Shown: in pieces, positions 36,347 to 49,474 of the stretch
Layout of the letters: each line of letters opens with the position of its first letter
Numbering within the stretch: the stretch's first letter is position 1
Source: an uncultured Spirochaetota bacterium
Lineage (GTDB): Bacteria > Spirochaetota > Spirochaetia > SZUA-6 > Fen-1364
DNA: 64,000 bases
Assembly (NCBI GenBank): GCA_963781885.1
Contig: CAWAHW010000004.1
Location: 98,139-162,138, forward strand
Reading direction: 5' to 3'
Program-made: the position numbers and the translations under genes
Notes under the pieces: model-generated
The model's database searches: none
Seen by the model: the letters and a program-made list of their open reading frames with translations, nothing else
What the model was told of the DNA's origin: nothing

Positions 36347-36448
36347 CCTTCAGCGAGCATCGGCGGAGAAGCTTTTCTTGCCGTCATGAATGGTACCCGT
36401 CGTGCCTTGGGGCCGGCATCAGGCGCAAGCACGTGGCCAAATAAAAAA
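36347..36448. repeat. Direct repeat of the 5S downstream flank (copy of 49246-49359)
   Basis: GAAGCTTTTCTTGCCGTCATGAATGGTACCC...GCGCAAGCACGTGGCCAAATAAAAAA present at both sites. Confidence 0.9.
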
Positions 36449-36558
36449 GCCTGGCAACGACCTACTCTCCCACCTCAAGTAGCACCATCGGCGTGGCAGG
36501 GCTTAACTTCCGTGTTCGGGATGGGAAGGGGTGGAACCCCTGCGCCATGTCACCAGGC
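36449..36558 (-). rRNA. rrf: Orphan, diverged 5S rRNA copy (possible pseudogene)
   Basis: Full-length alignment to the 5S at 49360-49474 with several substitutions and a net 5-nt deletion. Confidence 0.75.
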
Positions 36559-36907: not shown

Positions 36908-38716
36908 CTAGTTCCAGATCCGTGCCACGAAGCCTGCGCTGTGAGTGGTTCCATCGTTGTATTGGTCGAAGAACCCACCCAACAGGATCCTGCCGTCACT
37001 TTGAACGGCACTGGACCAGACACTGGTAGCCTGGCCGGCATAGTTGAACCCACTGCCAGGGCTGAACGTGGCGTCGAAGCTTCCGCTGGCATTCAGGCGC
37101 GCAGCTTGACCGACAGGATGGTCGGTACCATCGCTGTAGCCGGTGAAAGCACCGCCAATGACGATCTTGCCGTCCGTTGGCTGCACGGCGATCGTATAGA
37201 CGACGTCATTTGCTCCCGTGTGGCCTGAGTTGAAGGAGGTGTCGAGGCTGCCGTTGGCGTTCAATCGTGCTATACGGCCACTACAGCTCGTCCCGTTGTA
37301 GGTCGTGAACCATCCGCCCAGGAGGATCTTGCTATCGCTGGGCTGCAGGGCAATCACGTAGACCGTGGCGTTGGCTCCGGTGCCACCAGAATTGAAGGTA
37401 GTGTCGAGGCTGCCGTCGGCATTCAGGCGCGCCAGCCAGCCGACAGTGTGATCGGTGCCGTCGTTATAGCTGCTGAAGGCACCCCCTATGAGGATCTGGC
37501 CATTGCCCAGCACTTGAATCGAATTGACCGTGCTATTGGCTCCCGTGCCACCGGAATTGAAGGAAGTGTCGAGGCTTCCGTCGGCGTTCAGCCGCGCCAG
37601 ATGGCCGACGGTGTGATCGGTGCCGTCGTTGTAGCCGGTGAAAATACCGCCGAGGAGGATCTTGCCGTCCGCGGGCTGCAGGGCGATCGTCTCCACGTTG
37701 TTGCCAGGTCCCGTGCCGCCTGAGTTGAACGAGACATCGGGGCTGCCATTGGTGTTCAGCCGCGCTAGAGCTGGACTCCCGGTACGACAACCAACAAGGA
37801 TCTTGCCATCGTCCTGGACGGCAGATGAATCGAACCATGGCATCTTATCCGGCCAATTGGAAGAAGAATCAAACGAAGTGTCGTAGCTGCCGTCCGCGTT
37901 CACTCGAACAACACCGTTGCCAAGGTGCGTTCCGGTACTGTCTGTATAGCCGTAAAGCAGCCCACTGAAAATCAATTTGCCATCGCTCTGTATGACAATC
38001 GAAGATACATAATTGTTCGCCGTACCCAGGGAGGTATCCAGCATTCCCGGGTCGTTTTTAACCAGGACGGTTGCAGAAGCGACGGATGAGTCGCTCATCC
38101 CGGATTTCACCGCGCAGGCCTTGATCGTCTTCCAACTCCCTTTCCCGTTCACCAGGACCGGCAAGGAGCTCTGAAATACGGGTGACGAAGCCGAAGGCGT
38201 TGAGCCATCAGTAGTATAGTGGATGACCGCTCCCCCGGTAGTGTCGTTGATCGTGACAGACTGATCGGTGGTATATACGCCGGAGCCGGGAAAGATGGAC
38301 GGTGTGGAGACCTGGATGTAGTTGATTTTGTAGGTTGCACTTCCCACCCCGCTGGTCTTCATCCCTGTCGCGGCCGCAATCGCCTTGATGGTCTTTACGG
38401 TCCGATCGCTTGCCACCAGGATCGGTGCGCTGTAGAGCGTGGAGGATGTCGTTGGCGTACTGCCGTCCGTCGTGTAGTAAATGGAAGCCCCCGCCAAGGA
38501 GCATGACAGCCCCACCGTGAAGTCTACGGTTGAGACATACTGCCCGCTCGCATCCGCGGTCGGGGTGAACGTGGGGGTGGCCACAGTCTGCTGCAGCCGC
38601 TCCTGCAGGTCGTTCAGCAGTGAATTGGGGTTGCAGGAGAGAAGCATGACGACTGCCGCCGAGAGAGCCAAAGAAAAGGCCGGGACCCCTTTTCGATACC
38701 GCGCCATCCTGCCCAT
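36908..38716 (-). CDS. Surface lipoprotein: two chitobiase/Fn3-associated domains plus Delta-60 beta-propeller repeats
   Basis: Lipobox LLSC; ATPTF...IYYTTDGSTPT twice; repeated Q.DGKIL.GG.F...ARLNADGSLDTSF. Confidence 0.85.
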   Translation of the reverse strand: MGRMARYRKGVPAFSLALSAAVVMLLSCNPNSLLNDLQERLQQTVATPTFTPTADASGQYVSTVDFTVGLSCSLAGASIYYTTDGSTPTTSSTLYSAPILVASDRTVKTIKAIAAATGMKTSGVGSATYKINYIQVSTPSIFPGSGVYTTDQSVTINDTTGGAVIHYTTDGSTPSASSPVFQSSLPVLVNGKGSWKTIKACAVKSGMSDSSVASATVLVKNDPGMLDTSLGTANNYVSSIVIQSDGKLIFSGLLYGYTDSTGTHLGNGVVRVNADGSYDTSFDSSSNWPDKMPWFDSSAVQDDGKILVGCRTGSPALARLNTNGSPDVSFNSGGTGPGNNVETIALQPADGKILLGGIFTGYNDGTDHTVGHLARLNADGSLDTSFNSGGTGANSTVNSIQVLGNGQILIGGAFSSYNDGTDHTVGWLARLNADGSLDTTFNSGGTGANATVYVIALQPSDSKILLGGWFTTYNGTSCSGRIARLNANGSLDTSFNSGHTGANDVVYTIAVQPTDGKIVIGGAFTGYSDGTDHPVGQAARLNASGSFDATFSPGSGFNYAGQATSVWSSAVQSDGRILLGGFFDQYNDGTTHSAGFVARIWN

Positions 38717-38733
38717 TTTCCACCCTTCCTTCT

Positions 38734-40860
38734 TCATTCCGATTCCCAAAGTACGGCCGCCTCTTCGCTCTGGCTGTCCGCCGCGCGCGTCGCATCGACC
38801 CTGGACGCCTGGAGGTCTGTGTACTGCGAGGCAAGCGTCGGATCGATGGCCTTCAGCTCGTCGAAGCTTTTTTGTGCCCCCGCCTGATCCTTCAGTTGTC
38901 GATCCACCCGGATGAGTGCGATCAGCGCGTGCGCGCTCTGCGGATCCAGCTGGCTGGCCTGCTGGTAGCAGCCCAGCGCGTTCCGCCAGTCCGCCTTCTG
39001 GAAGTAGAGGTTCCCCAGATTGAGAAGCGAGGGAAGATAGGCCTTCTGGGCGAGAACCTGCCTGAGCACCGCCTCGGCCTTGTCCCCCTGGCCGCACTTG
39101 GCGTAGAGCACTGCAATCTTGTTCATGACCGCGAGGTTCGAGCCCCCCTGCGTCTGGCCCTGGAGTTGGGCCACCCTGTCGCCCAGCACACCATCGACGT
39201 ATTTCTGCGTCTCGGCAAGGTACGCCTGAAGGACCTGCTCAGACTCGGGGATGGCGATTGTCGTCCCCGTCCCCGGAAGCCCCACCGACTGGTACGCTTT
39301 CCACGCCTCCTGGACGGGATAGAACCCCGCCTGACCGGTGGCGTTGTTGTCGTTCCACTCCTGGGCCCCGAGCTCCCAAGCCCTCATGAATCCCTGGTGC
39401 CTTATCGTGATCTCCACCGGGATCCATACGTGCCCGCCCTGGGAAATGTATTGCTCCCGGCTGATCAGTGCGTCCTCGGCCTGATCGGGTGTGAGCTTGG
39501 TATCCACCGCGACGAAGATGTGCCCCGGGATGGTGATAAAGGCGGCATCGATGCCCACCGCCTGGAGCAGCGAGCTGTACAGGATAGAAATGTCGCTGCA
39601 GTCTCCTGCCCGATACTGGAAGGTCTCCCGCGGGAACTGGAGGAAGTCCACCGCATACTTCTGCTTGGAGGCCTCCGAATACGGGGTGATCGGGTTGGCG
39701 GTGTAGTTCAGGCCGTAGAGATCAAGGGCCTCGTGCAGCGCGACGGCCGCCACGAGGCTGCTGTTGATCGAGCGTTTCTCCCTGGCACGAACGTAGCTGG
39801 TGACCGTTCGCGCGAAGTTAAGGACCTGGGGCTCCTTGGCCGTGACATAGGCGGCAGCCTTGCGGTTGTCGTCCCACGTCATAGCGTTTCTTCCATAGAG
39901 GGTCAGCGTGGCCACTTGCTTGTCCGTGTAGCTCTGCCCCTCAACCGAGAAGGTGAGGCCCACCTCCGCGGCTACCTTGGTCCCCTCAGTGATCTCAAGG
40001 ACCTTGTCGGTGAAAAGTGCGTAGAGGGATATTTCCTTTGTCTCTCCCGGGGAAAGCGTTCCGGGAATGGCGACGGTCTTTGGTGCGTCCATGTACTGAC
40101 GGATGTACACCTGGGCGGTCAGGTTCGTGGCGGGGGACTTGAGGCTGCTCTTGATCTGAAGGGTCCCCAAGGGGTGATCGTCGTAGTACTTGTAGAAGAG
40201 AGGGAACGCGGGCTGCAGGTTGATCGATTGTACATCGACCCTCCCGCCGAGGTTCCCCAGGGCGACGTCGATCCCCGCCATGACGTTCAGGCCCTGGTAG
40301 AGTCCCACGTAGTAGGCATACCGAGCACCGACGCTTAGTCCTAACCCCGAGGCGAGAGAAAACCTGACCCCAAAGCCACCGGCGATGTAGGGGTCCCAAG
40401 CGGCCGCGGAGAAGTCATTGTACGTTGCCACGTAGTAGCCGCCCTCCGCGAAGGCGAAGGGGGAGAAGATGTCTCCAATCGGGATTTGGATCTCCACACC
40501 CAGGCGGGCCGTGGCAAAAGAGAGACTTGGGGCCTGAGTCGACGCCGCGGCCGCATACTTGTACTGCAGGCCGCCCAGGACCGCGAAGATCGAGTGAGGG
40601 AAGCTGTACTTCAGCCCGACGTCTCCGGTGACGCCAAAGCCGAAGGAAGTGGTGGCGGGGTTGCCTGGGTTCTGGATGTCTCCCATGGGAATATCGAAGG
40701 CCGGCATCAACTCCAGGGAAAGAGGCGAAGGGATCTGGGCGATTGTGCTCGTGACGACGGCCCCTGGGGGGGTGTTTTGCGCGGTGACCGTGCACGGGTT
40801 CATGAGCAAAAAAAGGAGTAGCGGCGCACAGAGTTGAAGGACACCCTTGACCTTTTTCAT
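38734..40860 (-). CDS. Exported protein: putative OM beta-barrel + Ig-like + transglutaminase-like + TPR (paralogue 1)
   Basis: Signal peptide; alternating aromatic/Gly strands; WDDNRKAA; GDCSDISILYSSLL..VG....IPGH; WIPVEIT; C-terminal TPRs. Confidence 0.7.
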   Translation of the reverse strand: MKKVKGVLQLCAPLLLFLLMNPCTVTAQNTPPGAVVTSTIAQIPSPLSLELMPAFDIPMGDIQNPGNPATTSFGFGVTGDVGLKYSFPHSIFAVLGGLQYKYAAAASTQAPSLSFATARLGVEIQIPIGDIFSPFAFAEGGYYVATYNDFSAAAWDPYIAGGFGVRFSLASGLGLSVGARYAYYVGLYQGLNVMAGIDVALGNLGGRVDVQSINLQPAFPLFYKYYDDHPLGTLQIKSSLKSPATNLTAQVYIRQYMDAPKTVAIPGTLSPGETKEISLYALFTDKVLEITEGTKVAAEVGLTFSVEGQSYTDKQVATLTLYGRNAMTWDDNRKAAAYVTAKEPQVLNFARTVTSYVRAREKRSINSSLVAAVALHEALDLYGLNYTANPITPYSEASKQKYAVDFLQFPRETFQYRAGDCSDISILYSSLLQAVGIDAAFITIPGHIFVAVDTKLTPDQAEDALISREQYISQGGHVWIPVEITIRHQGFMRAWELGAQEWNDNNATGQAGFYPVQEAWKAYQSVGLPGTGTTIAIPESEQVLQAYLAETQKYVDGVLGDRVAQLQGQTQGGSNLAVMNKIAVLYAKCGQGDKAEAVLRQVLAQKAYLPSLLNLGNLYFQKADWRNALGCYQQASQLDPQSAHALIALIRVDRQLKDQAGAQKSFDELKAIDPTLASQYTDLQASRVDATRAADSQSEEAAVLWESE

Positions 40861-40978
40861 AACAGGCTCCTGCCGGCGTCGAACGTTTCTTTGATACTAC
40901 CATTCTAATTGGCAACGGGACAACCAGGAGAAGGACAGCCCGCGATGTGCGACGAAAAGTAACGAGGGCGCAAGCCTC

Positions 40979-41124
40979 ACCATCGGCGCGGCAGGGCTTG
41001 GGCATAAAAAAAGCCTGGCAACGACCTACTCTCCCACCCCGCGCCGCGGCGGTTCGCGGTGCGAACCGTTGTGGAGATTTGCGGCGCTACCATCGGCGAG
41101 CACGGGTTTGACTTCCGTGTTGGG
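40979..41124 (-). repeat. Cluster of 5S rRNA-derived fragments with a hairpin insertion
   Basis: 21-nt exact 5S segment 40979-40999; 25-nt exact 5S 3' end 41013-41037; diverged 5S mid-segment 41088-41124. Confidence 0.85.
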
Positions 41125-41548
41125 CGTGCCCCGCCCGAGGGCATGGCTTTAGCCGCGATGCCCAGCCCCACGGCGGGCGGGTCGCGTGCTGCGGGGGTTC
41201 CGTCCTCGCAACTCCACGGAGTACCGTGGAAGGCTCGGACCGCTTCGCGCCCCTCCGCCCGCTCACGCATTCCGTTGCTGCGCGCGGGCGGAATCGACGG
41301 CGTCGAACTGCGGGCAAGGCCCAGCTCGTTCGTGAAAGGCAAGGAGGAGGCGCTGCAGGTCTACACGGTGCCAAGCGCGAGCCTGTGCAGACCTGGGACT
41401 GGATTCCCGGCGGTTTCAGGCCGATCTCCGCGGCGGGCGCCGCCATGTTGTACGAAAATGAACCTTGATCTTTCAAATTCCCTCTGCTATGATCCTATTA
41501 TTCCCCCGTTGAGGGTCATTTCCGAATGTCTATTTGCAAGGAGTCTAT

Positions 41549-42409
41549 ATGAGAAAACGATCAGTGTTGCTCGTGATAGCAACGGCGTCGGTCGCGTTAC
41601 TTCTGGCATCCTGTTCGGCTCCGGTCATATCGGTCAGTGACGCGGAACTTTCCTACGACAGTAATGGGCACATGACAAGCGATGTCACGTACACGTATTA
41701 CGACGGAAGCGGCATCGAGACCGATACATTCTCCGCCGCTGGTACGTACGAATATGTCTGGAAAACCTGGGATGCTCCGAGCTCGTCATGGCGGCAAAGC
41801 GATGGCGCCCAGGCCACCTACTCGTATGACACGAGCACGCGGTTGATGACGTTCAACTATACACAGTTTTGGAATGGGGGAGTCGGCGGCAGTTATGTCA
41901 CGCCCACCAGTACTTGGAGCTCCACAAAGACCGAAACATATCCCATGATCCTCGGCTCGAGCAACTGCTATTGGCAAGTTTTGACTGGAAAAGACGGGAA
42001 TTATGAAAGTACCGATAATTCGACCGCATGGAACGGATTGAAGTACACAAATACCATGAGTGCAACCATCGCTTCCGATCTTTCGACGGTCACCACTGCC
42101 AGCGAATGGGAAGCCTATAGTACAAGCGGCGTGGCGACAAATGGCAGCAAGAGCAGCGACGTCATGACGAAGGACCAGATCTTCCCGAGCACCGTCAAAA
42201 CCCTCGACGATGCCAAAGGAAAGGTCATTACTTTTACGTGGTTGACCGATGTCAGTACGCCCTATACCTGGAATTCGGGAACCAACTTCAGCCAGGGCGT
42301 TCCCACGACCAACCATAACGCCGGCAGCCAGACACTCAGCTCCGCCAGTGATGGCTCCTGGGTGGCATGGGTTAGCTACTCCCAGGCCAGACACCTCACC
42401 GTCAGGTAG
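41549..42409 (+). CDS. Ser/Thr-rich hypothetical lipoprotein
   Basis: Lipobox LLASC; upstream TTGATC-N17-TATGAT; lower GC than host genes. Confidence 0.75.
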   Translation: MRKRSVLLVIATASVALLLASCSAPVISVSDAELSYDSNGHMTSDVTYTYYDGSGIETDTFSAAGTYEYVWKTWDAPSSSWRQSDGAQATYSYDTSTRLMTFNYTQFWNGGVGGSYVTPTSTWSSTKTETYPMILGSSNCYWQVLTGKDGNYESTDNSTAWNGLKYTNTMSATIASDLSTVTTASEWEAYSTSGVATNGSKSSDVMTKDQIFPSTVKTLDDAKGKVITFTWLTDVSTPYTWNSGTNFSQGVPTTNHNAGSQTLSSASDGSWVAWVSYSQARHLTVR

Positions 42410-42427
42410 CTTTTTCGCGGCAAATCC

Positions 42428-42459
42428 AAAAACGGACCGGCGCAACCCGGTCCGTTTTC
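42428..42459. terminator. Bidirectional intrinsic terminator between convergent lipoprotein genes
   Basis: AAAAACGGACCGG-loop-CCGGTCCGTTTT. Confidence 0.65.
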
Positions 42460-42606
42460 CATTGGCGGGCAAATCGGCTGCCATACGGCTTCTGCTCGCC
42501 GCGGTCCGGGTGCCATTGACTGCGCCGTTGCCGCTGGAAGCGAACTTCTCCACGCATTCGGTTGCCGAATTCCGCGGGTGGGATTCCTAGTGGAGACGCC
42601 GTCCCA

Positions 42607-44315
42607 TTACGGCGCGATAAACTGGTACCCGCCCATTGACCAAGACCCGGAGTTCCGCGTGACTCCATCCAGATCGTCGGCGAATCCCCAGTTTTGCGCA
42701 ACGCCGTCAAGGCCTTGCTGTCGAGCTTCGACGGGCGCGTTGATCTTGTTGAGGTGCCAGTCCTGGCTCGTAGGGTCGGTGAACATGTCGGTCAGCAGGG
42801 CGCCCGAGGTAACATTTCCGCTCGCACCTGAAAAGCCGTTCATGTCTATTGGGGTATAGACGGAACCACTCACGCTCGCAAAGGGCGCATTGGGCATTGG
42901 AACACGTAGTTGTTCTTGAAAGAAGCAGGCAAAGAATCGGACGTTGCGGTAACACCATATTTCCGTTGCTGCCCCGTAGCAAGTGAGAAAATTAGGTTGT
43001 TTTCAATCGTCGCACTTGCGCCGTTGAGATTTGTGATGCCCTCATCCCCATCGGTTGATGCGCCAAATAAAATTGACCCCGCGCAAATCGTGTTATTTCG
43101 CAGTGTTGGAGATGATCCATCGACAAGGACTCCCGCGGTGCCCGGACCTTGGTCTGTCAGGCCTCCGTGAATAATGTTGTTGTAAATATAGGCCTGACAT
43201 CCAGACTCCATACTGATACCCATGCTGCTTGAATATGCATCGCCTCCATAGATCGTGTTGTACGCGACCGTCGCAGCGCTCCCGATATCGTAGATGCCGA
43301 CGGAATAGTCGTAGGTTCCGCTGGTCCCGCCGCTTATCTTGTTGTGCATAATGCTTGGATGGGCGCCATTGCACAGTATTGCAACGGTATTGCCGTTTTT
43401 TCCTCCCGAGATGGCGTTGCGCTGGACGGTAATTGAGGATAAATTCAAAGTCAGCCCATAGGAATTGTCCCCGCCTCCCCCATCGATGGAATTGCTCTGG
43501 AGCGTCACCCCTGTGCAGTTGGCGCAGTAGATCCCTGTCGTGTTGTTTCCACTGAAATCGCCCTTTATTGAAAAGCCATCGATCGTGAGAGGGCGAGAAG
43601 TGTTGTCCAGCAATATCGTTTCGACATTCGGTGAAACCTGGATCACGGTCGGATACAACGAAGACCCATTTATCGCCCAGTCCGGGTCCTCCCTCTTCGT
43701 CCAATCCGTCGCGTCGTATCCTCCGTACAACGATATTCCGTCTTTCAAGATGATGACGCTCGATGGCTGATATGTTCCCGCAGCAACATGAACTGCCGCG
43801 CTGGAATAGACGGCACCGGCAGTGTCTATCGCCTTTTGAATCGTTTTCTTCGGGAGGTCAATCGTCCCCGGATTGTCGTCATTTCCGTTCGTGCCATGAA
43901 CATAGACAACGCCATCCAGCACTCCGTACGTCAGCGCAACCTGCTTGACCGCATAGCCTTCCCCATTTGCGCAATCGACCGTCAGTGTCTTTCCGCTTCC
44001 TGTCGACCATGACGTCTTCGGGCGGAAAGTCAAAGTGTCATTTGGCAGCGTCGTCACGGACCAGGTCCCGCCGTCGCTTTCGGGTGCCATCGATCCGCCG
44101 ACCGCGAGTGTCGACGTGTCGATGGTCGCGGAAAAGGAGACCACGATGGGGGTCGTCGGCGCGACGCCCGAGCCGGAGGGGAATGAGAGCACGGTCTTCG
44201 GCGTCTGATAATCCTTCACCGCCAGCTCGAGGGTTGTCCGCAACGGCAGCGGGCAGCCGGCAAAAAAGGGCAGAATCGCCACCGCGAGAAGCGCTTTTCC
44301 GACACGCCTGTCCAT
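42607..44315 (-). CDS. Lipoprotein: Ig-like domain + DUF1565/parallel beta-helix + choice-of-anchor-Q-like C-terminus (frameshift near 42900)
   Basis: Lipobox FFAGC; YV..NGNDDNPGT..PKKTIQKAI; Gly/Asn-rich helix repeats; DLDGVTR...MGGYQF. Confidence 0.75.
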
Positions 44316-44329
44316 GTGTATGCCGGCGA

Positions 44330-44406
44330 TTATGCTCCCGGAATCGCCACTTGTCAATTTCCGGTGGAGAGCAATTTCTTGACACGGGTTGCGCCTGTGC
44401 TACTAT
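44330..44406. promoter_or_regulatory. Back-to-back sigma70 promoters for the lipoprotein and TGase-TPR genes
   Basis: + strand TTGACA(44379)-N16-TACTAT; - strand TTGACA(44357-44352)-N18-CATAAT. Confidence 0.6.
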
Positions 44407-44440
44407 TGGAGCAAATGAGTCAATTGACGTGAGGCGGGGC

Positions 44441-46540
44441 ATGGTCCGTCCAACGGTTCCGCTGGCGCTTCTTTTTTGCGTCACATTTGCCGCGTCGGCG
44501 CAGTCCGCGCAGGGACCGTCAACGGGGAAGCCGTCAGGCGAGCTGCCGTCTCTTGCCCTCATGCCGGGCATCGAGCTTCCCCTGGAAGTGGGAAAACAAC
44601 TCTTCGAGCCGCTGGGCGGCATGGGCGGCATTTCCGTGGCTGTGCCGTTTGGTCGTCTGCCTTTCCTCTCGGTCCTGACGGACGTGGGATACAGCTACGC
44701 ACCCGTGCGTGCCCAAGCCTCGATGTCGATGATATCGGTGGCCCTGGGGGCCGGGCTGAATTACGACCTGACTCCGCAGCTCATTCTCCAGGCACGCGTG
44801 GGTGCGGGAGGGTTCTTTGGCCTTTTCAATTCAACGATAAGGGATCCAACGGGTGTTCCCTATGACCCGCAATCGGGGTTCGACCCCTTCGTCCAGGCAG
44901 GGGTGGGCATATCTTTCTACCTCACGCCCGTTTTCAGCGTCGACCTGAGCGGCACGTATTACCAGTACATCGGACTTTCGCAGGGGATCAGGGTCCAGGC
45001 GGGAAGCTCCCTGCATTTCAGCGGTCTCAGCAGAAAGCTGGATCTTCTTGACCCGCGCATGCAGCGAGTCTTCCCCTCACTCCTGCAGTATTACCAATCC
45101 GTTCCCATCGGGACGGCGACGATACGCAACGGCGAACGATTCCCTCTGAAAAACGTGCAGGTGTCGTATTTCGTCAAGGGACTCATGGACGGTCCCCGGG
45201 TCTGTGCGACCATTCCGCAGATGAAGCCGGGCGAATCCCGCTCCGTGGACCTCCGTGCGCTTTTCTCCGACCGGATCCTGGACGTGCGGGAGGACGGTCA
45301 CGTCGCCGCGACCATCACGATTGACTACCTGCTCAACGGCGGCAAGCAACGGAAAATCGTGGCGGAAAGCCTGAGCGTCCTCAACCGAAACGCCTCGACG
45401 TGGGACGACAACCGAAAGGCCGCGAGCTTCGTGTGTGCCAAGGACCCCGACGTGCTGCGCTTCGGCAAGGCTGTTGCCGAGACGGTGCGCGCGGCGGGGC
45501 CGGACAGCATCGACCTTCCCCTGCGCGAGGGAATGGGTATATTCGAGGCGCTCTCCCAGTACGGCGTCGGCTACGTCGTGGACCCGAACACGCCCGCCTA
45601 CGAGTCGGCATCGAAGGATCCGCTCGTTGTCGATTTCCTCCAGTTTCCCAACCAGACCCTCAAGTTCAAAGGTGGGGATTGCGACGACCTTTCCATTCTT
45701 TACACATCCCTCCTGGAAGCTGTTGGAGTTGAAACGGCGTTCATCACGGTGCCGGGACACATCTATGCGGCTTTCGCTCTGGAAATGACGGCCGCGGATG
45801 CGATGAAGTCGTTCGCGAATGACAAAGAGGTGTTGATTCAAAATGGGAAGGCGTGGGTGCCGGTAGAGATCACAATGGTCGGCAAATCGTTCCAGGAGGC
45901 GTGGCAAGCGGGAGCCCAAGAATGGAATACGAACAAGGACACGGCAGGATTTTATCCCGTGCACGATGCGTGGAAGGTATATGCGACCGCGGGGACGCCA
46001 ACGGGCATCGGTGAAATCCAGGACCTCGATCGGACGGCATTTGCACCCCGGGTCGGCGGTGAGATCGCCCGATTCGTGGATCGCGAGCTCGCCCCGCAGG
46101 TGGACCGCCTCCGCCTGGCAATGGGGGATTCGTATGACAGCAAGCTCCTCAACAGGCTCGGCATCTTGTACGCCCGGTATGGAAGAATGGATGACGCGGA
46201 GGCGACATTCCAGAAAGTCCTCATGAAAGAGCCCTATGTTCCCGCGCTCATCAATATGGGCAATCTCGCCCTGCTGAAGGGCGACTTTGAAGGAGCCGCC
46301 ACCTTTTTCCAGACGGCGCTGTCGAAGGCGGCGGATAATGCCCCCGCGCTGGCAGGCATCACACGGGCAAGCTACGGCGAGGGTAAGCTTGCGCTTGCGA
46401 ACCAGTACCTCGCATCGCTCAAGGCACAGGATCCCGCCTCGGCGGACAAGCTCGCCTTCATGGGCACGGGAGACCAGACGGCAAGGGCCGCCTCCTTCAC
46501 AGACGCCCTCCGCAACGTCGAGTGGACGGAGAGTCAGTGA
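44441..46540 (+). CDS. Exported protein: putative OM beta-barrel + Ig-like + transglutaminase-like + TPR (paralogue 2)
   Basis: Signal peptide from ATG 44441; WDDNRKAA; GDCDDLSILYTSLL..VG....VPGH; WVPVEIT; TPRs; collinear with 38734-40860. Confidence 0.7.
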   Translation: MVRPTVPLALLFCVTFAASAQSAQGPSTGKPSGELPSLALMPGIELPLEVGKQLFEPLGGMGGISVAVPFGRLPFLSVLTDVGYSYAPVRAQASMSMISVALGAGLNYDLTPQLILQARVGAGGFFGLFNSTIRDPTGVPYDPQSGFDPFVQAGVGISFYLTPVFSVDLSGTYYQYIGLSQGIRVQAGSSLHFSGLSRKLDLLDPRMQRVFPSLLQYYQSVPIGTATIRNGERFPLKNVQVSYFVKGLMDGPRVCATIPQMKPGESRSVDLRALFSDRILDVREDGHVAATITIDYLLNGGKQRKIVAESLSVLNRNASTWDDNRKAASFVCAKDPDVLRFGKAVAETVRAAGPDSIDLPLREGMGIFEALSQYGVGYVVDPNTPAYESASKDPLVVDFLQFPNQTLKFKGGDCDDLSILYTSLLEAVGVETAFITVPGHIYAAFALEMTAADAMKSFANDKEVLIQNGKAWVPVEITMVGKSFQEAWQAGAQEWNTNKDTAGFYPVHDAWKVYATAGTPTGIGEIQDLDRTAFAPRVGGEIARFVDRELAPQVDRLRLAMGDSYDSKLLNRLGILYARYGRMDDAEATFQKVLMKEPYVPALINMGNLALLKGDFEGAATFFQTALSKAADNAPALAGITRASYGEGKLALANQYLASLKAQDPASADKLAFMGTGDQTARAASFTDALRNVEWTESQ

Positions 46541-46697: not shown

Positions 46698-46723
46698 GGG
46701 CATAAAAAAAGCCTGGCAACGAC
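46698..46723 (-). repeat. 5S rRNA 3'-terminal 13 nt plus A-tract flank, truncated by IS66
   Basis: GGGCATAAAAAAAGCCTGGCAACGAC identical to 41000-41025. Confidence 0.85.
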
Positions 46724-46808
46724 GTAACCGTCAAAACAACCACACCTTGTAAAGAGGCCTTGAGGAATCAATCCTGAGCCCACGATTTGAGCGCTCAGGA
46801 GGTGATGC

Positions 46809-47150
46809 ATGGATCAAGTCCCCGCGAAAATGAAACAGCGGCATCGCTCGGCTGCGGAGTGGCGCGAGCTGATAAGCGCTTGGAAGCAAAGCGGCAAGAC
46901 GCGCGAGATGTGGTGCCACGAGAACGGCGTGGGCATGGAATCCCTACGTCGATGGACGAAGCGACTTCGAAGAGCAGACGCAGCCGTAGCCTTCGTCCAG
47001 ATTGAGAAGTCCATTTCTGTTTCAACGAAGTCCGTCCCGATACACCTTCGCATCTTGGCAAGCGGCGATGTGGAGCTTCAGGGGGAGTTCAGCGAGGAGC
47101 TTCTTCGCGGAGTGTTACGTGTCGCACGGGAAGCGGCTGATGTTTCTTGA
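46809..47150 (+). CDS. tnpA: IS66 TnpA accessory protein
   Basis: W...I.AWKQSG.T...WC..NGV...LRRW pattern. Confidence 0.8.
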   Translation: MDQVPAKMKQRHRSAAEWRELISAWKQSGKTREMWCHENGVGMESLRRWTKRLRRADAAVAFVQIEKSISVSTKSVPIHLRILASGDVELQGEFSEELLRGVLRVAREAADVS

Positions 47151-47487
47151 GTGGGATCGGGTGAAGGTGTTTGTGCGCCCCGGTGGCACAGACCTGAGGA
47201 AACAGATCAACGGTCTGGCAGCGATGGCGCAAAGTGCGATGGCCGGGGATCCACTGTCCGGGAACCTATTTCTGTTCAGCAATAAGGACCGGCATCTACT
47301 GAAGGCGCTGTACTGGGATCATAGCGGTTTTTGCCTGTGGCAGAAGCGCCTGGAGCGGGAGAAGTTTCCCTGGCCGCACACACAGGAGGCGGCACGCGAA
47401 ATCAGCGTTGAGCAGCTTCGCATGCTGTTGAGCGGGATCGACTTCTGGAACGCGCATCAGAAGCTGAGCTATCGAAGCGTCATATAG
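47140..47487 (+). CDS. tnpB: IS66 TnpB accessory protein
   Basis: TDLRKQINGL, LFLF, LKALYWD.SGFCLWQKRLE. Confidence 0.92.
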   Translation: MFLEWDRVKVFVRPGGTDLRKQINGLAAMAQSAMAGDPLSGNLFLFSNKDRHLLKALYWDHSGFCLWQKRLEREKFPWPHTQEAAREISVEQLRMLLSGIDFWNAHQKLSYRSVI

Positions 47488-47526
47488 GACTACCGGGGAT
47501 CCCGGCTCTCATGATAAAGTGCCCGG

Positions 47527-49134
47527 GTGAGCGACAAACTGGGAGCGCTACCGGACGGTGTGAAGGAGTTGCACGATCGTATTCGTCAGCTTGAGGCCAG
47601 CCTGGAGAAGGAACGTGCCGAGAAGATTGAATACCAGCACGAAGCTCTGAAGCATTTCGAGGAGATCCAGCTTCTGCGGCGACGGATATTCGGTCGCAGA
47701 GCGGAGAAGCTCAGCGAGGAAGACCGGCGTCAACTTCTGCTGTTCAACGAGGCTGAGGAAATTCTGGCGCAAGGCAGCGGGCAGCCTGAGGAGCAAACCG
47801 TCGAGGTTCGTGCTCATAGCCGACGAAAGAGCGGGCGCAAACCCCTGCCGCCCGAGATTCCCCGAGTCGAGACAATTCACGACATCAGCGAAGAAGAGAA
47901 GCAATGCGCCTGCGGGCAACAGATGGGCCGCATCGGGGAGGAGATCTGCGAAAAGCTTGAAGTGATCCCTGCCCGCATTCGGGTGCGCCGTCACGTGCGG
48001 CCCAAGTATGCCTGCCATGCCTGCGAAGGCTCGGGAGACGAGAGTCGAGCAGCAGTTCGTATTGCTCCTGCTCCCGTACAGCTTCTGCCCAAAAGCATCG
48101 CCTCTCCCGCCCTTGTGGCTTACATCATGGTGGGCAAGTTCTGTGATTCCTTGCCGTTCTACCGCCAGGAGAAGCAGTTTGCGCGCATCGGAGTGGAGGT
48201 CAGCCGTCAGGACATGGCCAACTGGAGCATTGCGGTGTTTCAGAGGCTTCGGCCGCTTCGGGAGTTGATGCGTAGCCAGATCCGTCGAGGCCCTCTGGTG
48301 CAGATCGATGAGACGACGGTGCAGGTCATGGGGGAGCCCGGGCGGCCCAACACCTCAAAGAGCTTTATGTGGGTATTCCTGGGAGGAAGCCCCGGTCAGC
48401 CTGTCGTAGAGTATCAGTACCATCCTACCCGCTCGGGCAAGATTCCTTTCGACGCTCTACGAGGGTATGAAGGCTTCATCCAAACAGACGGCTACGATGG
48501 TTATCAAGAGCTGGGAAGCCAACCGGGGATCGTGCATGTCGGATGCTGGGCACATACCCGGAGAAAGTTCTTCGAGGCCAAGGAAGTCTCCAAGACCAAA
48601 GGCAGCGCCGATGTCGCCTTGGCCAGCATCAATGAGCTTTTCAAGATCGAACGGACGCTCAGAGACGAGGATCTTGCTCCCAATCAGTTCACACAACGCC
48701 GTCGCGAGCAGACTGAACCTGTACTTGAGAAGCTGCGCGTATGGCTGGAGGAGCGCGAGGGTCAGGTCCCTCCGTCCACGACGCTGGGCAAGGCGATCGG
48801 CTACACCGTCGGGCAGTGGCCCAAGCTCATCCGTTACCTGGACAGCCCGCTGTTGGCTCCCGACAACAATGCCTGCGAGAGGGCCATTCGGCCCTTTGTG
48901 ATCGGACGCAAGAACTGGATGCTGTCAGGAAGCCCCGCAGGAGCGGAAGCCAGCGCGGCATGGTACAGCCTCATCGAAACCGCGAAGAGCAACGGCGTTG
49001 AGCCCTATCTGTACTTGTGTTACATCCTCGCCAGATTGCCCGACAGCAACAACCCTGCAGACTTTCAATTCCTTCTGCCCTGGAATATTTCAAAAGAATC
49101 CTTGCTCGATTTCCAGTCGGGACGTCTGGCCTGA
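47527..49134 (+). CDS. tnpC: IS66 DDE transposase TnpC
   Basis: Leucine-zipper, CACG/CHAC zinc finger, QIDETT, QTDGY, GCWAHTRRKF, DNNACERAIRP. Confidence 0.95.
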   Translation: MSDKLGALPDGVKELHDRIRQLEASLEKERAEKIEYQHEALKHFEEIQLLRRRIFGRRAEKLSEEDRRQLLLFNEAEEILAQGSGQPEEQTVEVRAHSRRKSGRKPLPPEIPRVETIHDISEEEKQCACGQQMGRIGEEICEKLEVIPARIRVRRHVRPKYACHACEGSGDESRAAVRIAPAPVQLLPKSIASPALVAYIMVGKFCDSLPFYRQEKQFARIGVEVSRQDMANWSIAVFQRLRPLRELMRSQIRRGPLVQIDETTVQVMGEPGRPNTSKSFMWVFLGGSPGQPVVEYQYHPTRSGKIPFDALRGYEGFIQTDGYDGYQELGSQPGIVHVGCWAHTRRKFFEAKEVSKTKGSADVALASINELFKIERTLRDEDLAPNQFTQRRREQTEPVLEKLRVWLEEREGQVPPSTTLGKAIGYTVGQWPKLIRYLDSPLLAPDNNACERAIRPFVIGRKNWMLSGSPAGAEASAAWYSLIETAKSNGVEPYLYLCYILARLPDSNNPADFQFLLPWNISKESLLDFQSGRLA

Positions 49135-49359
49135 GTTCATTACCGCAAGACGCCTCGCGGCTACGCACACAGGGGTGTGGTTGTTTTGACGGTTACCCCG
49201 CTTGAGCCGGGCGGTAGGTGCGGTTTAATTAGCGGTTACATTTAACCTTCAACGAGCATCAGCAGAAAGAGAGAAAGAGAAGCTTTTCTTGCCGTCATGA
49301 ATGGTACCCATCATGCCCTGGGGCCGCATCATGCGCAAGCACGTGGCCAAATAAAAAAA

Positions 49360-49474
<115 letters not shown>

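Follow-up and report, generated by a model that had tools for sequence, protein, structure and literature searches.

What is a transglutaminase-like protein with a predicted outer-membrane barrel doing beside a lipoprotein gene, and why does this arrangement occur twice in one stretch of spirochaete DNA? The question is raised by a window of 64,000 nucleotides (nt) from an uncultured member of the Spirochaetota (the window being the whole stretch analysed, positions 98,139 to 162,138 of contig CAWAHW010000004.1 in GenBank assembly GCA_963781885.1). The source genome comprises 4.64 Mb in seven contigs; it is labelled G000 below, and coordinates headed C1, C2 or C7 are on contigs of it. The two genes in question, A and B, prove to be two copies of a conserved two-gene cassette of free-living Spirochaetota, in which the first gene encodes a transglutaminase-like protein, divergent within its superfamily, that also carries an OmpA-like barrel and tetratricopeptide repeats (TPRs), and is almost always followed directly by the gene of a lipoprotein bearing a characteristic short segment, or tag, after its lipidated cysteine. 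From this position it seems probable that the enzyme handles that lipoprotein. The genes and domains of the two cassettes are as follows.

38734-40860, minus strand: enzyme A (P0001, 708 residues), comprising signal peptide, eight-strand barrel, beta-sandwich, transglutaminase-like core and TPRs
40261-40740, minus strand: residues 41-200 of A, predicted eight-strand outer-membrane barrel like those of OmpA, NspA and OmpX (DSSP strands of the AlphaFold2 model, and Foldseek)
39898-40239, minus strand: residues 208-321 of A, Ig-like beta-sandwich (AlphaFold2 secondary structure, and Foldseek)
39256-39897, minus strand: residues 322-535 of A, transglutaminase-like core (PF01841, and triad)
39598-39600, 39520-39522 and 39412-39414, minus strand: codons of the A triad, Cys421, His447 and Glu483 respectively
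38806-39243, minus strand: residues 540-685 of A, long helix and TPRs (Pfam TPR_1, TPR_2, TPR_7 and TPR_19, and AlphaFold2 helices)
36908-38737, minus strand: partner lipoprotein of A (lipobox LLSC), with two CHB_HEX_C/Fn3_assoc domains and seven delta-60 (DUF5122) propeller repeats
44441-46540, plus strand: enzyme B (P0002, 699 residues), with the domain order of A
42870-44315, minus strand, divergent from B: partner lipoprotein of B (lipobox FAGC), with Big_5 and a DUF1565 beta-helix
44329-44406: back-to-back sigma-70-like promoters, from a consensus scan only, TTGACA-17-CATAAT on the minus strand (44357-44329) and TTGACA-16-TACTAT on the plus strand (44379-44406)

A and B are collinear paralogues, 34% identical across 650 aligned residues (E 3e-123). 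An earlier note, drawn up from the window alone, had recognized this relationship at the same coordinates, and had read each protein as a signal peptide, some 200 residues of strands alternating in aromatic residues and glycine, an Ig-like segment, a transglutaminase-like core and C-terminal TPRs; all of this is borne out, and the strand region can now be given a likely fold. A was modelled by AlphaFold2 with the help of 45 homologues (mean pLDDT, a measure of model confidence, 81.6); in the result, the signal peptide is followed by eight long beta-strands at residues 47-200, the beta-sandwich, an alpha/beta core, a 30-residue helix and about four TPRs; eight barrel strands also appear in a second, separate model, made for a relative in a different genome, whose core has a pLDDT of 94-98. 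Compared with the PDB by Foldseek, the N-terminal domain of A matched OmpA-TM (1bxw), NspA (1p4t, TM-score 0.77), OmpX (1qj9), Ail and OprF-N, with probability 1.0 for 1bxw, 1p4t and 1qj9; the middle of the protein matched the sandwich-plus-core of the animal transglutaminases TG2 and TG3 and of band 4.2, and the C-terminal part matched TPR proteins. Taken together, the two independent models predict for the segment after the signal peptide an eight-strand antiparallel barrel, probably closed, of the OmpA-like kind. The N-terminal domain of OmpA, NspA, OmpX and Ail share this fold with A (TM up to 0.77), but are without an enzyme; the periplasmic domain of OmpA binds peptidoglycan. Sequence profiles gave weak signals on the whole protein, namely OMP_b-brl at residues 70-184 (PF13505; 24.3 bits, under the cut-off of 28.7 bits), Transglut_core at 408-482 and several TPR families at 575-685. 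A PDB sequence search with the whole protein gave TPR matches only, and one with a profile of the core gave nothing significant.

Scanned alone, the core of A scored 27.2 bits against PF01841 (Transglut_core; cut-off 23), a family matched by 37 of 38 relatives, while the whole proteins scored 23.4 bits (A) and, under the cut-off, 21.3 bits (B). The layout of the transglutaminase superfamily is present in the model, with the Cys at the N-terminus of a helix and the His and acidic residue on later strands. The motifs in A are G-D-C-x-D (helix 424-434), P-G-H (strand 447-453) and P-V-E (strand 477-482), the acidic residue being an invariant Glu within W-x-P-[VI]-E-[IVM]-T; the triad of B is Cys414/His440/Glu476. 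Cys421, His447 and Glu483 were already invariant in the first alignment of 45 sequences, and these positions are kept in 81 of 81 aligned family members (drawn from 80 other loci plus A and B). The Cys-His-Glu core that had been picked out in the earlier note is therefore family-wide. Among the ten paralogues of the source genome the Cys and His are present in all, and the Glu in all those whose sequence extends that far.

The N-terminal 300 residues of NCBIfam NF058533 ('anti-phage protein ProA', 1,903 residues) weakly matched residues 232-473 of P0001 and 365-507 of P0002, at 33-36 bits against a cut-off of 1500. This suggests that a sandwich-plus-transglutaminase module is common to the family and this defence protein; membership of ProA itself was rejected at these scores, and a PADLOC defence scan gave no match.

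About ten paralogues are encoded in the source genome, three of them truncated or frameshifted, so the 'twice-repeated module' of the earlier note, in which A and B were rightly seen as copies, is not a two-copy peculiarity. At least 786 relatives are present in the protein database, all unnamed or annotated 'TPR repeat protein', and at least 567 loci in GTDB species representatives, almost all of them metagenome-assembled genomes of Spirochaetota and often with several loci per genome. In an even sample of 301 Spirochaetota genomes from 126 genera, the family was present in 37 genomes and 31 genera (three candidates per genome were scored, so that copy numbers from this survey are floors), and many complete but small genomes within the same class, possibly those of host-associated spirochaetes, did not show it. 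This apparent absence may explain why the family went unnoticed; full-text literature searches found no published description of the architecture or the cassette.

How regular is the association with lipoproteins? It was assessed in 80 loci fetched from other spirochaete genomes. Lipoprotein genes were found by a lipobox scan independent of gene calls, because gene calling from codon usage missed surface lipoproteins, with their odd composition and overlapping starts. A strict detector, accepting a co-directional lipoprotein start from -25 to +170 nt of the enzyme stop, found a lipoprotein gene after the enzyme in 47 of the 69 loci with enough downstream sequence, against a background with the same detector of 4.9% (183 candidates among ~3,745 genes of the source genome; binomial p 5e-45). 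On manual inspection most misses proved to be failures of the detector, the strict lipobox rule having no place for features such as a long n-region, or W, N or C at position -2/-1. With relaxed rules and recovery by hand, 62 of the 66 barrel-bearing members are followed by a co-directional lipoprotein gene; of the four exceptions, two are loci in which a small gene intervenes and the contig then runs out, a third has a very short flank, and the fourth is a true negative. On either count, homologues of A and B are massively enriched for adjacent lipoprotein genes, the opposite of what the earlier note had named as a refutation. The lipoprotein start lies mostly at -4, -13, -16 or -19 nt relative to the enzyme stop, which means that stop and start overlap, and translation of the lipoprotein is usually coupled to that of the enzyme. 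In the source genome a lipoprotein gene comes after A, after the paralogues C1a, C7a, C4b and C6, and after the frameshifted C7b; in the case of A, the ATG of the partner at 38737 overlaps the TGA of the enzyme as ATGA (38737-38734), an alternative start being the ATG at 38716, downstream of the ribosome-binding site AGGAAGGG.

The payloads of these lipoproteins bear no relation to one another: 49 partners carry 66 Pfam families, including NHL, RCC1, FG-GAP, SBBP and delta-60 propellers, Big_5, HYDIN-like, CARDB and fn3 sandwiches, and FGE-sulfatase domains, and in a whole-length alignment of the 49 sequences the start Met and the lipobox Cys are the only invariant columns. The Cys, common to all 49, ends a signal peptide recognized by pattern, and is followed over about 16 residues by the tag, with the consensus C-[PSED]-[NSD]-[PS]-[LF]-L-x-x-[VI]-[KQ]-x-x-[VI]-x-A-[AYF]; some tags have four extra residues before the Leu-Leu, and Lys or Gln is frequent at positions 13-14. 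The tag is predicted to form an amphipathic helix starting about three residues from the lipid anchor, its helical hydrophobic moment being 0.51, compared with 0.36 in other post-Cys segments (p 2e-12). When a profile hidden Markov model of the tag, trained only on other genomes, was run on the 183 lipoprotein candidates of the source genome, the six co-directional partners came out at ranks 1-5 and 7, and the candidate at rank 6 sits 5 kb from the paralogue C1b. Seven hits would come to lie by chance within the 2.6% of the genome near family genes with a probability of ~9e-12. As payloads vary and the tag is constant, the tag is the natural recognition element. The two tags in the window are located thus.

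38582-38635, minus strand: lipidated Cys28 of the partner of A, with tag CNPNSLLNDLQERLQQTV (rank 3 of 183 with the profile from other genomes)
44202-44255, minus strand: lipidated Cys21 of the partner of B, with the divergent tag CPLPLRTTLELAVKDYQT (weak match to the profile, rank 13 of 183)

The lipoprotein neighbours named in the earlier note (a delta-60 propeller gene just downstream of A, and a beta-helix gene divergent from B, with promoters between) are as described, but that of B is an exception to the family norm, in which the lipoprotein gene lies downstream and is co-directional. The promoter pair sits within a 125-nt spacer separating B from its divergent lipoprotein gene, and no gene coupled to B was found downstream, where a 5S-derived junction and an IS66 element follow ~180 nt past the B stop. 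The divergent tag of this lipoprotein (CPLPLRTTLELAV...) has a pattern resembling that of the tags of loci L039 and L057. That the beta-helix lipoprotein is nevertheless the true partner of B follows from homology: the nearest paralogue of B is C4b (39% identity), and the lipoprotein downstream of C4b is 31% identical to that divergent from B (E 5e-21), N-terminus included. The divergent placement is a local rearrangement. Similarly A, C1a and C7a are mutually 50-58% identical, and their lipoproteins 42-45%. By these comparisons enzyme and lipoprotein are duplicated as a unit.

The relationship also requires the barrel. None of seven barrel-less members, which align to the family from about residue 200 only, has a tagged partner (0/7; Fisher p 2e-7). 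Barrel-less genes occur at loci L020, L032, L036, L037, L047, L059 and L087, and also in the source genome (G000 C1:205759-208925); they keep the sandwich, triad and TPRs, with the N-terminal region replaced. In L020 the replacement consists of ankyrin repeats and is itself lipid-anchored, and in C1c the N-terminal region is 560 residues long.

Several variants of the cassette were seen. In one clade (G000 C7:16755-17693; L011, L015, L016 and L018) a secreted protein of ~300 residues is encoded between enzyme and tagged lipoprotein, which makes a cassette of three genes; it has a signal peptide and a single TPR (Pfam TPR_19), and its N-terminal beta region is conserved. Two or three lipoprotein genes stand in tandem after one enzyme gene at L052 (9016-13000), L030, L061 and L082, each keeping a near-identical tag (in L052 DDISLRETIDEMVLGWTRE three times), from which it may be that one enzyme can serve several cargoes. 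A protein of 1,487 residues (C1:521509-525972), encoded after C1b, has LVIVD-like repeats recognized by eye and an N-terminal hydrophobic anchor, and is without a lipobox Cys; a lipoprotein of 2,013 residues with the tag-like start CPPPVTDLLATAV is encoded near C1b, 5 kb off on the other strand (region C1:514842-520883).

What, then, might the enzyme do to its partner? With the tag as the sole constant feature of the partners, an invariant triad and a dependence on the barrel, the simplest reading is that of a tethered thiol enzyme docking on the tag. We would give an even chance to the specific proposal that this enzyme, held at the outer membrane and working in the periplasm, is dedicated to its own lipoprotein, binds it by the tag and processes the N-terminal tether of that lipoprotein. 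Both ends of an OmpA-type barrel of eight strands are in the periplasm; given that topology, sandwich, core and TPRs would project from the outer membrane at its inner face, the barrel holding the enzyme in the membrane and the Cys-His-Glu domain facing the periplasm with its neighbours on either side. The lipoprotein anchor, with the tag helix three residues away, would sit at the same inner face. There the enzyme may physically recognize the tag and act chemically on the tether of its own lipoprotein, most probably by cutting it, as LapG does to LapA, so that the payload would be released or matured; transfer of the payload to another acceptor would be a less likely action. The barrel models, the enrichment for lipoproteins and the invariant triad, the three points on which the earlier note had made itself open to refutation, all lend support to the view, cautiously put forward there, of a dedicated and previously undescribed system for a cognate lipoprotein. 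The tag, the overlap of stop and start codons, the co-duplication and the loss of the partner together with the barrel add to this support.

The analogy with LapG of Pseudomonas fluorescens (acting on LapA, with LapD) and with DvhG of Desulfovibrio lies in the presence of a periplasmic transglutaminase-like cysteine enzyme encoded near its substrate (PMC3032545; PMC13090378), and in the logic by which cutting of the N-terminal retention element of an envelope adhesin frees the payload, as may also happen here. LapG, however, is one of the BTLCPs (DUF920), small and soluble, its triad being Cys-His-Asp and its control lying with LapD and cyclic di-GMP, and its substrate is a giant adhesin secreted by a type I system; the present enzyme carries an outer-membrane barrel and TPRs in the same chain, its triad is Cys-His-Glu, and the substrate would be a lipoprotein, with one enzyme per substrate. 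Membership of the LapG/BTLCP family was rejected: Pfam scans of the family gave no match to DUF920 (PF06035), the acidic residue is Glu and not Asp, and the match of the core profile to 4u65_E (deposited as 'putative cystine protease', and which we take to be Legionella LapG) was not significant at E 0.42. No LapD-like gene was seen beside the pairs inspected, although no systematic search was made.

Several observations weigh against a tethered enzyme that processes its partner. The translational coupling and the provision of one enzyme per substrate suggest a stoichiometric partnership and not a turnover enzyme. The tag has no invariant residue that might mark a scissile bond, nor an invariant Gln or Lys that would serve as substrate. 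At locus L071, where the enzyme stop codon could be read through into the in-frame partner, a model of the resulting fusion had the tag helical at 727-740, but with a pLDDT of ~58 and no confident docking. The paralogue C1b is followed by the LVIVD-type protein mentioned above, which is not a lipoprotein, and in B both the poor match of the tag to the profile and the layout of the genes are atypical. Lastly, all lipoprotein calls come from pattern rules of our own and not from a trained predictor.

A wider formulation, which we put forward only tentatively, is that in free-living spirochaetes the post-Cys segment is an 'address tag' in a pathway of a kind so far undescribed, read by a cognate barrel/transglutaminase-fold/TPR enzyme that decides the fate of its lipoprotein (release, covalent re-anchoring or surface display), the pairs being duplicated and moved on mobile islands; nothing in the Lol, Slam, Bam or sortase pathways would correspond to such a modular, cargo-by-cargo sorting. 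Parallels in logic are the sortase/LPXTG, exosortase/PEP-CTERM and rhombosortase/GlyGly-CTERM systems, in which a thiol or serine enzyme reads a short terminal tag on unrelated cargo, and in which dedicated gene pairs of one enzyme and a single target exist. In those systems, though, the tags are C-terminal and the enzymes reside in the inner or cytoplasmic membrane, whereas here the tag is N-terminal, after the lipobox Cys, and the enzyme would be in the outer membrane; there is no homology.

The stoichiometry suggested by translational coupling and by one enzyme per lipoprotein would suit a stable, non-catalytic heterodimer of the outer membrane, with the tag helix held on the TPRs or barrel and the real substrate of the enzyme lying elsewhere, for example in peptidoglycan or another protein. 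The tag does look more like a docking helix with a hydrophobic stripe than like a cleavage motif, and barrel-less relatives retain the triad without having a tagged partner. Yet such a holder leaves unexplained why some ten catalytic paralogues in one genome should each need a different lipoprotein, and no third conserved gene accompanies the pair save the small signal-peptide-plus-TPR protein of one clade; we keep this arrangement as a rival, though a rather unlikely one.

Equal stoichiometry would also suit a single-turnover reaction, and one-to-one genetic coupling can be cited in favour of covalent anchoring, in which a sortase- or transglutaminase-like acyl transfer would link the tagged lipoprotein to peptidoglycan, to the enzyme or to some other envelope component. 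True transglutaminases have the same fold and triad, and Lys or Gln is frequent at tag positions 13-14; but no tag position is occupied by Gln or Lys throughout, no acceptor suggests itself, and most bacterial transglutaminase-like domains of known activity are hydrolases. Anchoring of this kind is a rival that stays in contention, but seems to us improbable.

Dependence on the barrel bears on a further possibility, a Slam-like surface export in which the TPRs would receive the lipoprotein in the periplasm and the barrel would help to move it to the surface, the payloads being surface adhesins or binding proteins. In Neisseria, Slam proteins, which serve TbpB, LbpB and HpuA, likewise combine TPRs with an outer-membrane barrel, are encoded beside the specific lipoprotein that they serve, and form several specific pairs per genome (PMC7857515), so that the gene logic is alike. 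Furthermore, the payloads here are typical extracellular folds, loss of the barrel is accompanied by loss of the partner, and the surface exposure of lipoproteins in free-living spirochaetes is poorly known. But in Slam the TPRs are N-terminal, the barrel (DUF560) has 14 strands and an enzyme domain is absent, while the family described here has an N-terminal barrel of eight strands, a catalytic core in the middle and C-terminal TPRs (residues 575-685). A Pfam scan of A and B gave no match to DUF560 (PF04575) at E <= 0.1. Homology to Slam was therefore rejected, the likeness being one of generic TPRs and barrels, and the Slam analogy drawn in the earlier note is not supported as a statement of either descent or mechanism. 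An eight-strand barrel of the OmpA/NspA type is too narrow to be a conduit alone, which makes a Slam-like conduit unlikely; export would give no role to the invariant Cys-His-Glu triad, and a Borrelia LptD homologue is reported (bioRxiv 10.1101/2022.12.21.521298) to flip surface lipoproteins. On balance we regard export as distinctly improbable.

The notion that adjacency is meaningless, spirochaetes encoding many lipoproteins (~183 candidates in this genome) and the partner of B being divergent, is to our minds all but untenable, and was ruled out by the statistics of pairing, tag profile and barrel dependence, given the 62 of 66 adjacent pairs, the overlap of start and stop, the partner-specific tag and the co-duplication.

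There remains the question of how two cassettes came to lie together. The 3' end of a 5S ribosomal RNA (rRNA) gene with its downstream A-run occurs in four copies (36440-36473, 41004-41037, 46702-46735 and 49351-49384), and a second full 5S gene is present at 36449-36557, 12.9 kb from the copy beside the 23S gene. These repeats split the region into three blocks, holding respectively A and its partner; an orphan lipoprotein, the partner of B, and B; and an IS66 element. Each cassette thus appears, from the arrangement of repeats, to occupy an inserted block of its own beside the rRNA operon. The bounding of the blocks by 5S ends looks like the outcome of successive insertions at the 5S end, and the cassettes look like mobile cargo. 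The IS66-family element (46723-49240, with three open reading frames at 46809-49134) starts just after the 5S-derived junction ~180 nt past B, and takes up the position that is usual for the gene of a partner lipoprotein. The orphan lipoprotein (41549-42409, plus strand, 286 residues, lipobox LASC), which we did not count in the module, has neither a Pfam or NCBIfam match nor a tag; paralogues of it elsewhere in the genome (C1:573071, C1:573986 and C7:277253) share with it the motif ...SDTEVAFDSNGHMT. Damage is seen in the stretches C7:176299-178513, C2:323951-325742, C1:205759-208925 and C1:94893-97262: three of the ten paralogues are frameshifted or truncated, and the lipoprotein region downstream of C1a is in fragments with 69%-identical repeats. 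Damage of both kinds suggests a rapid turnover of cassettes.

The sorting, exposure and shedding of lipoproteins in non-proteobacterial diderms are largely open questions, and spirochaetes are the most lipoprotein-rich case. The cassette offers a ready, testable pair, consisting of one enzyme and one tagged lipoprotein with a short, transferable tag, in up to about ten copies per genome. If the enzyme cleaves or transfers its partner, the tag would be a new N-terminal sorting signal, and the transglutaminase fold would have acquired a new job in the envelope; should this be true, the pair might also provide a tool for the controlled display or release of proteins.

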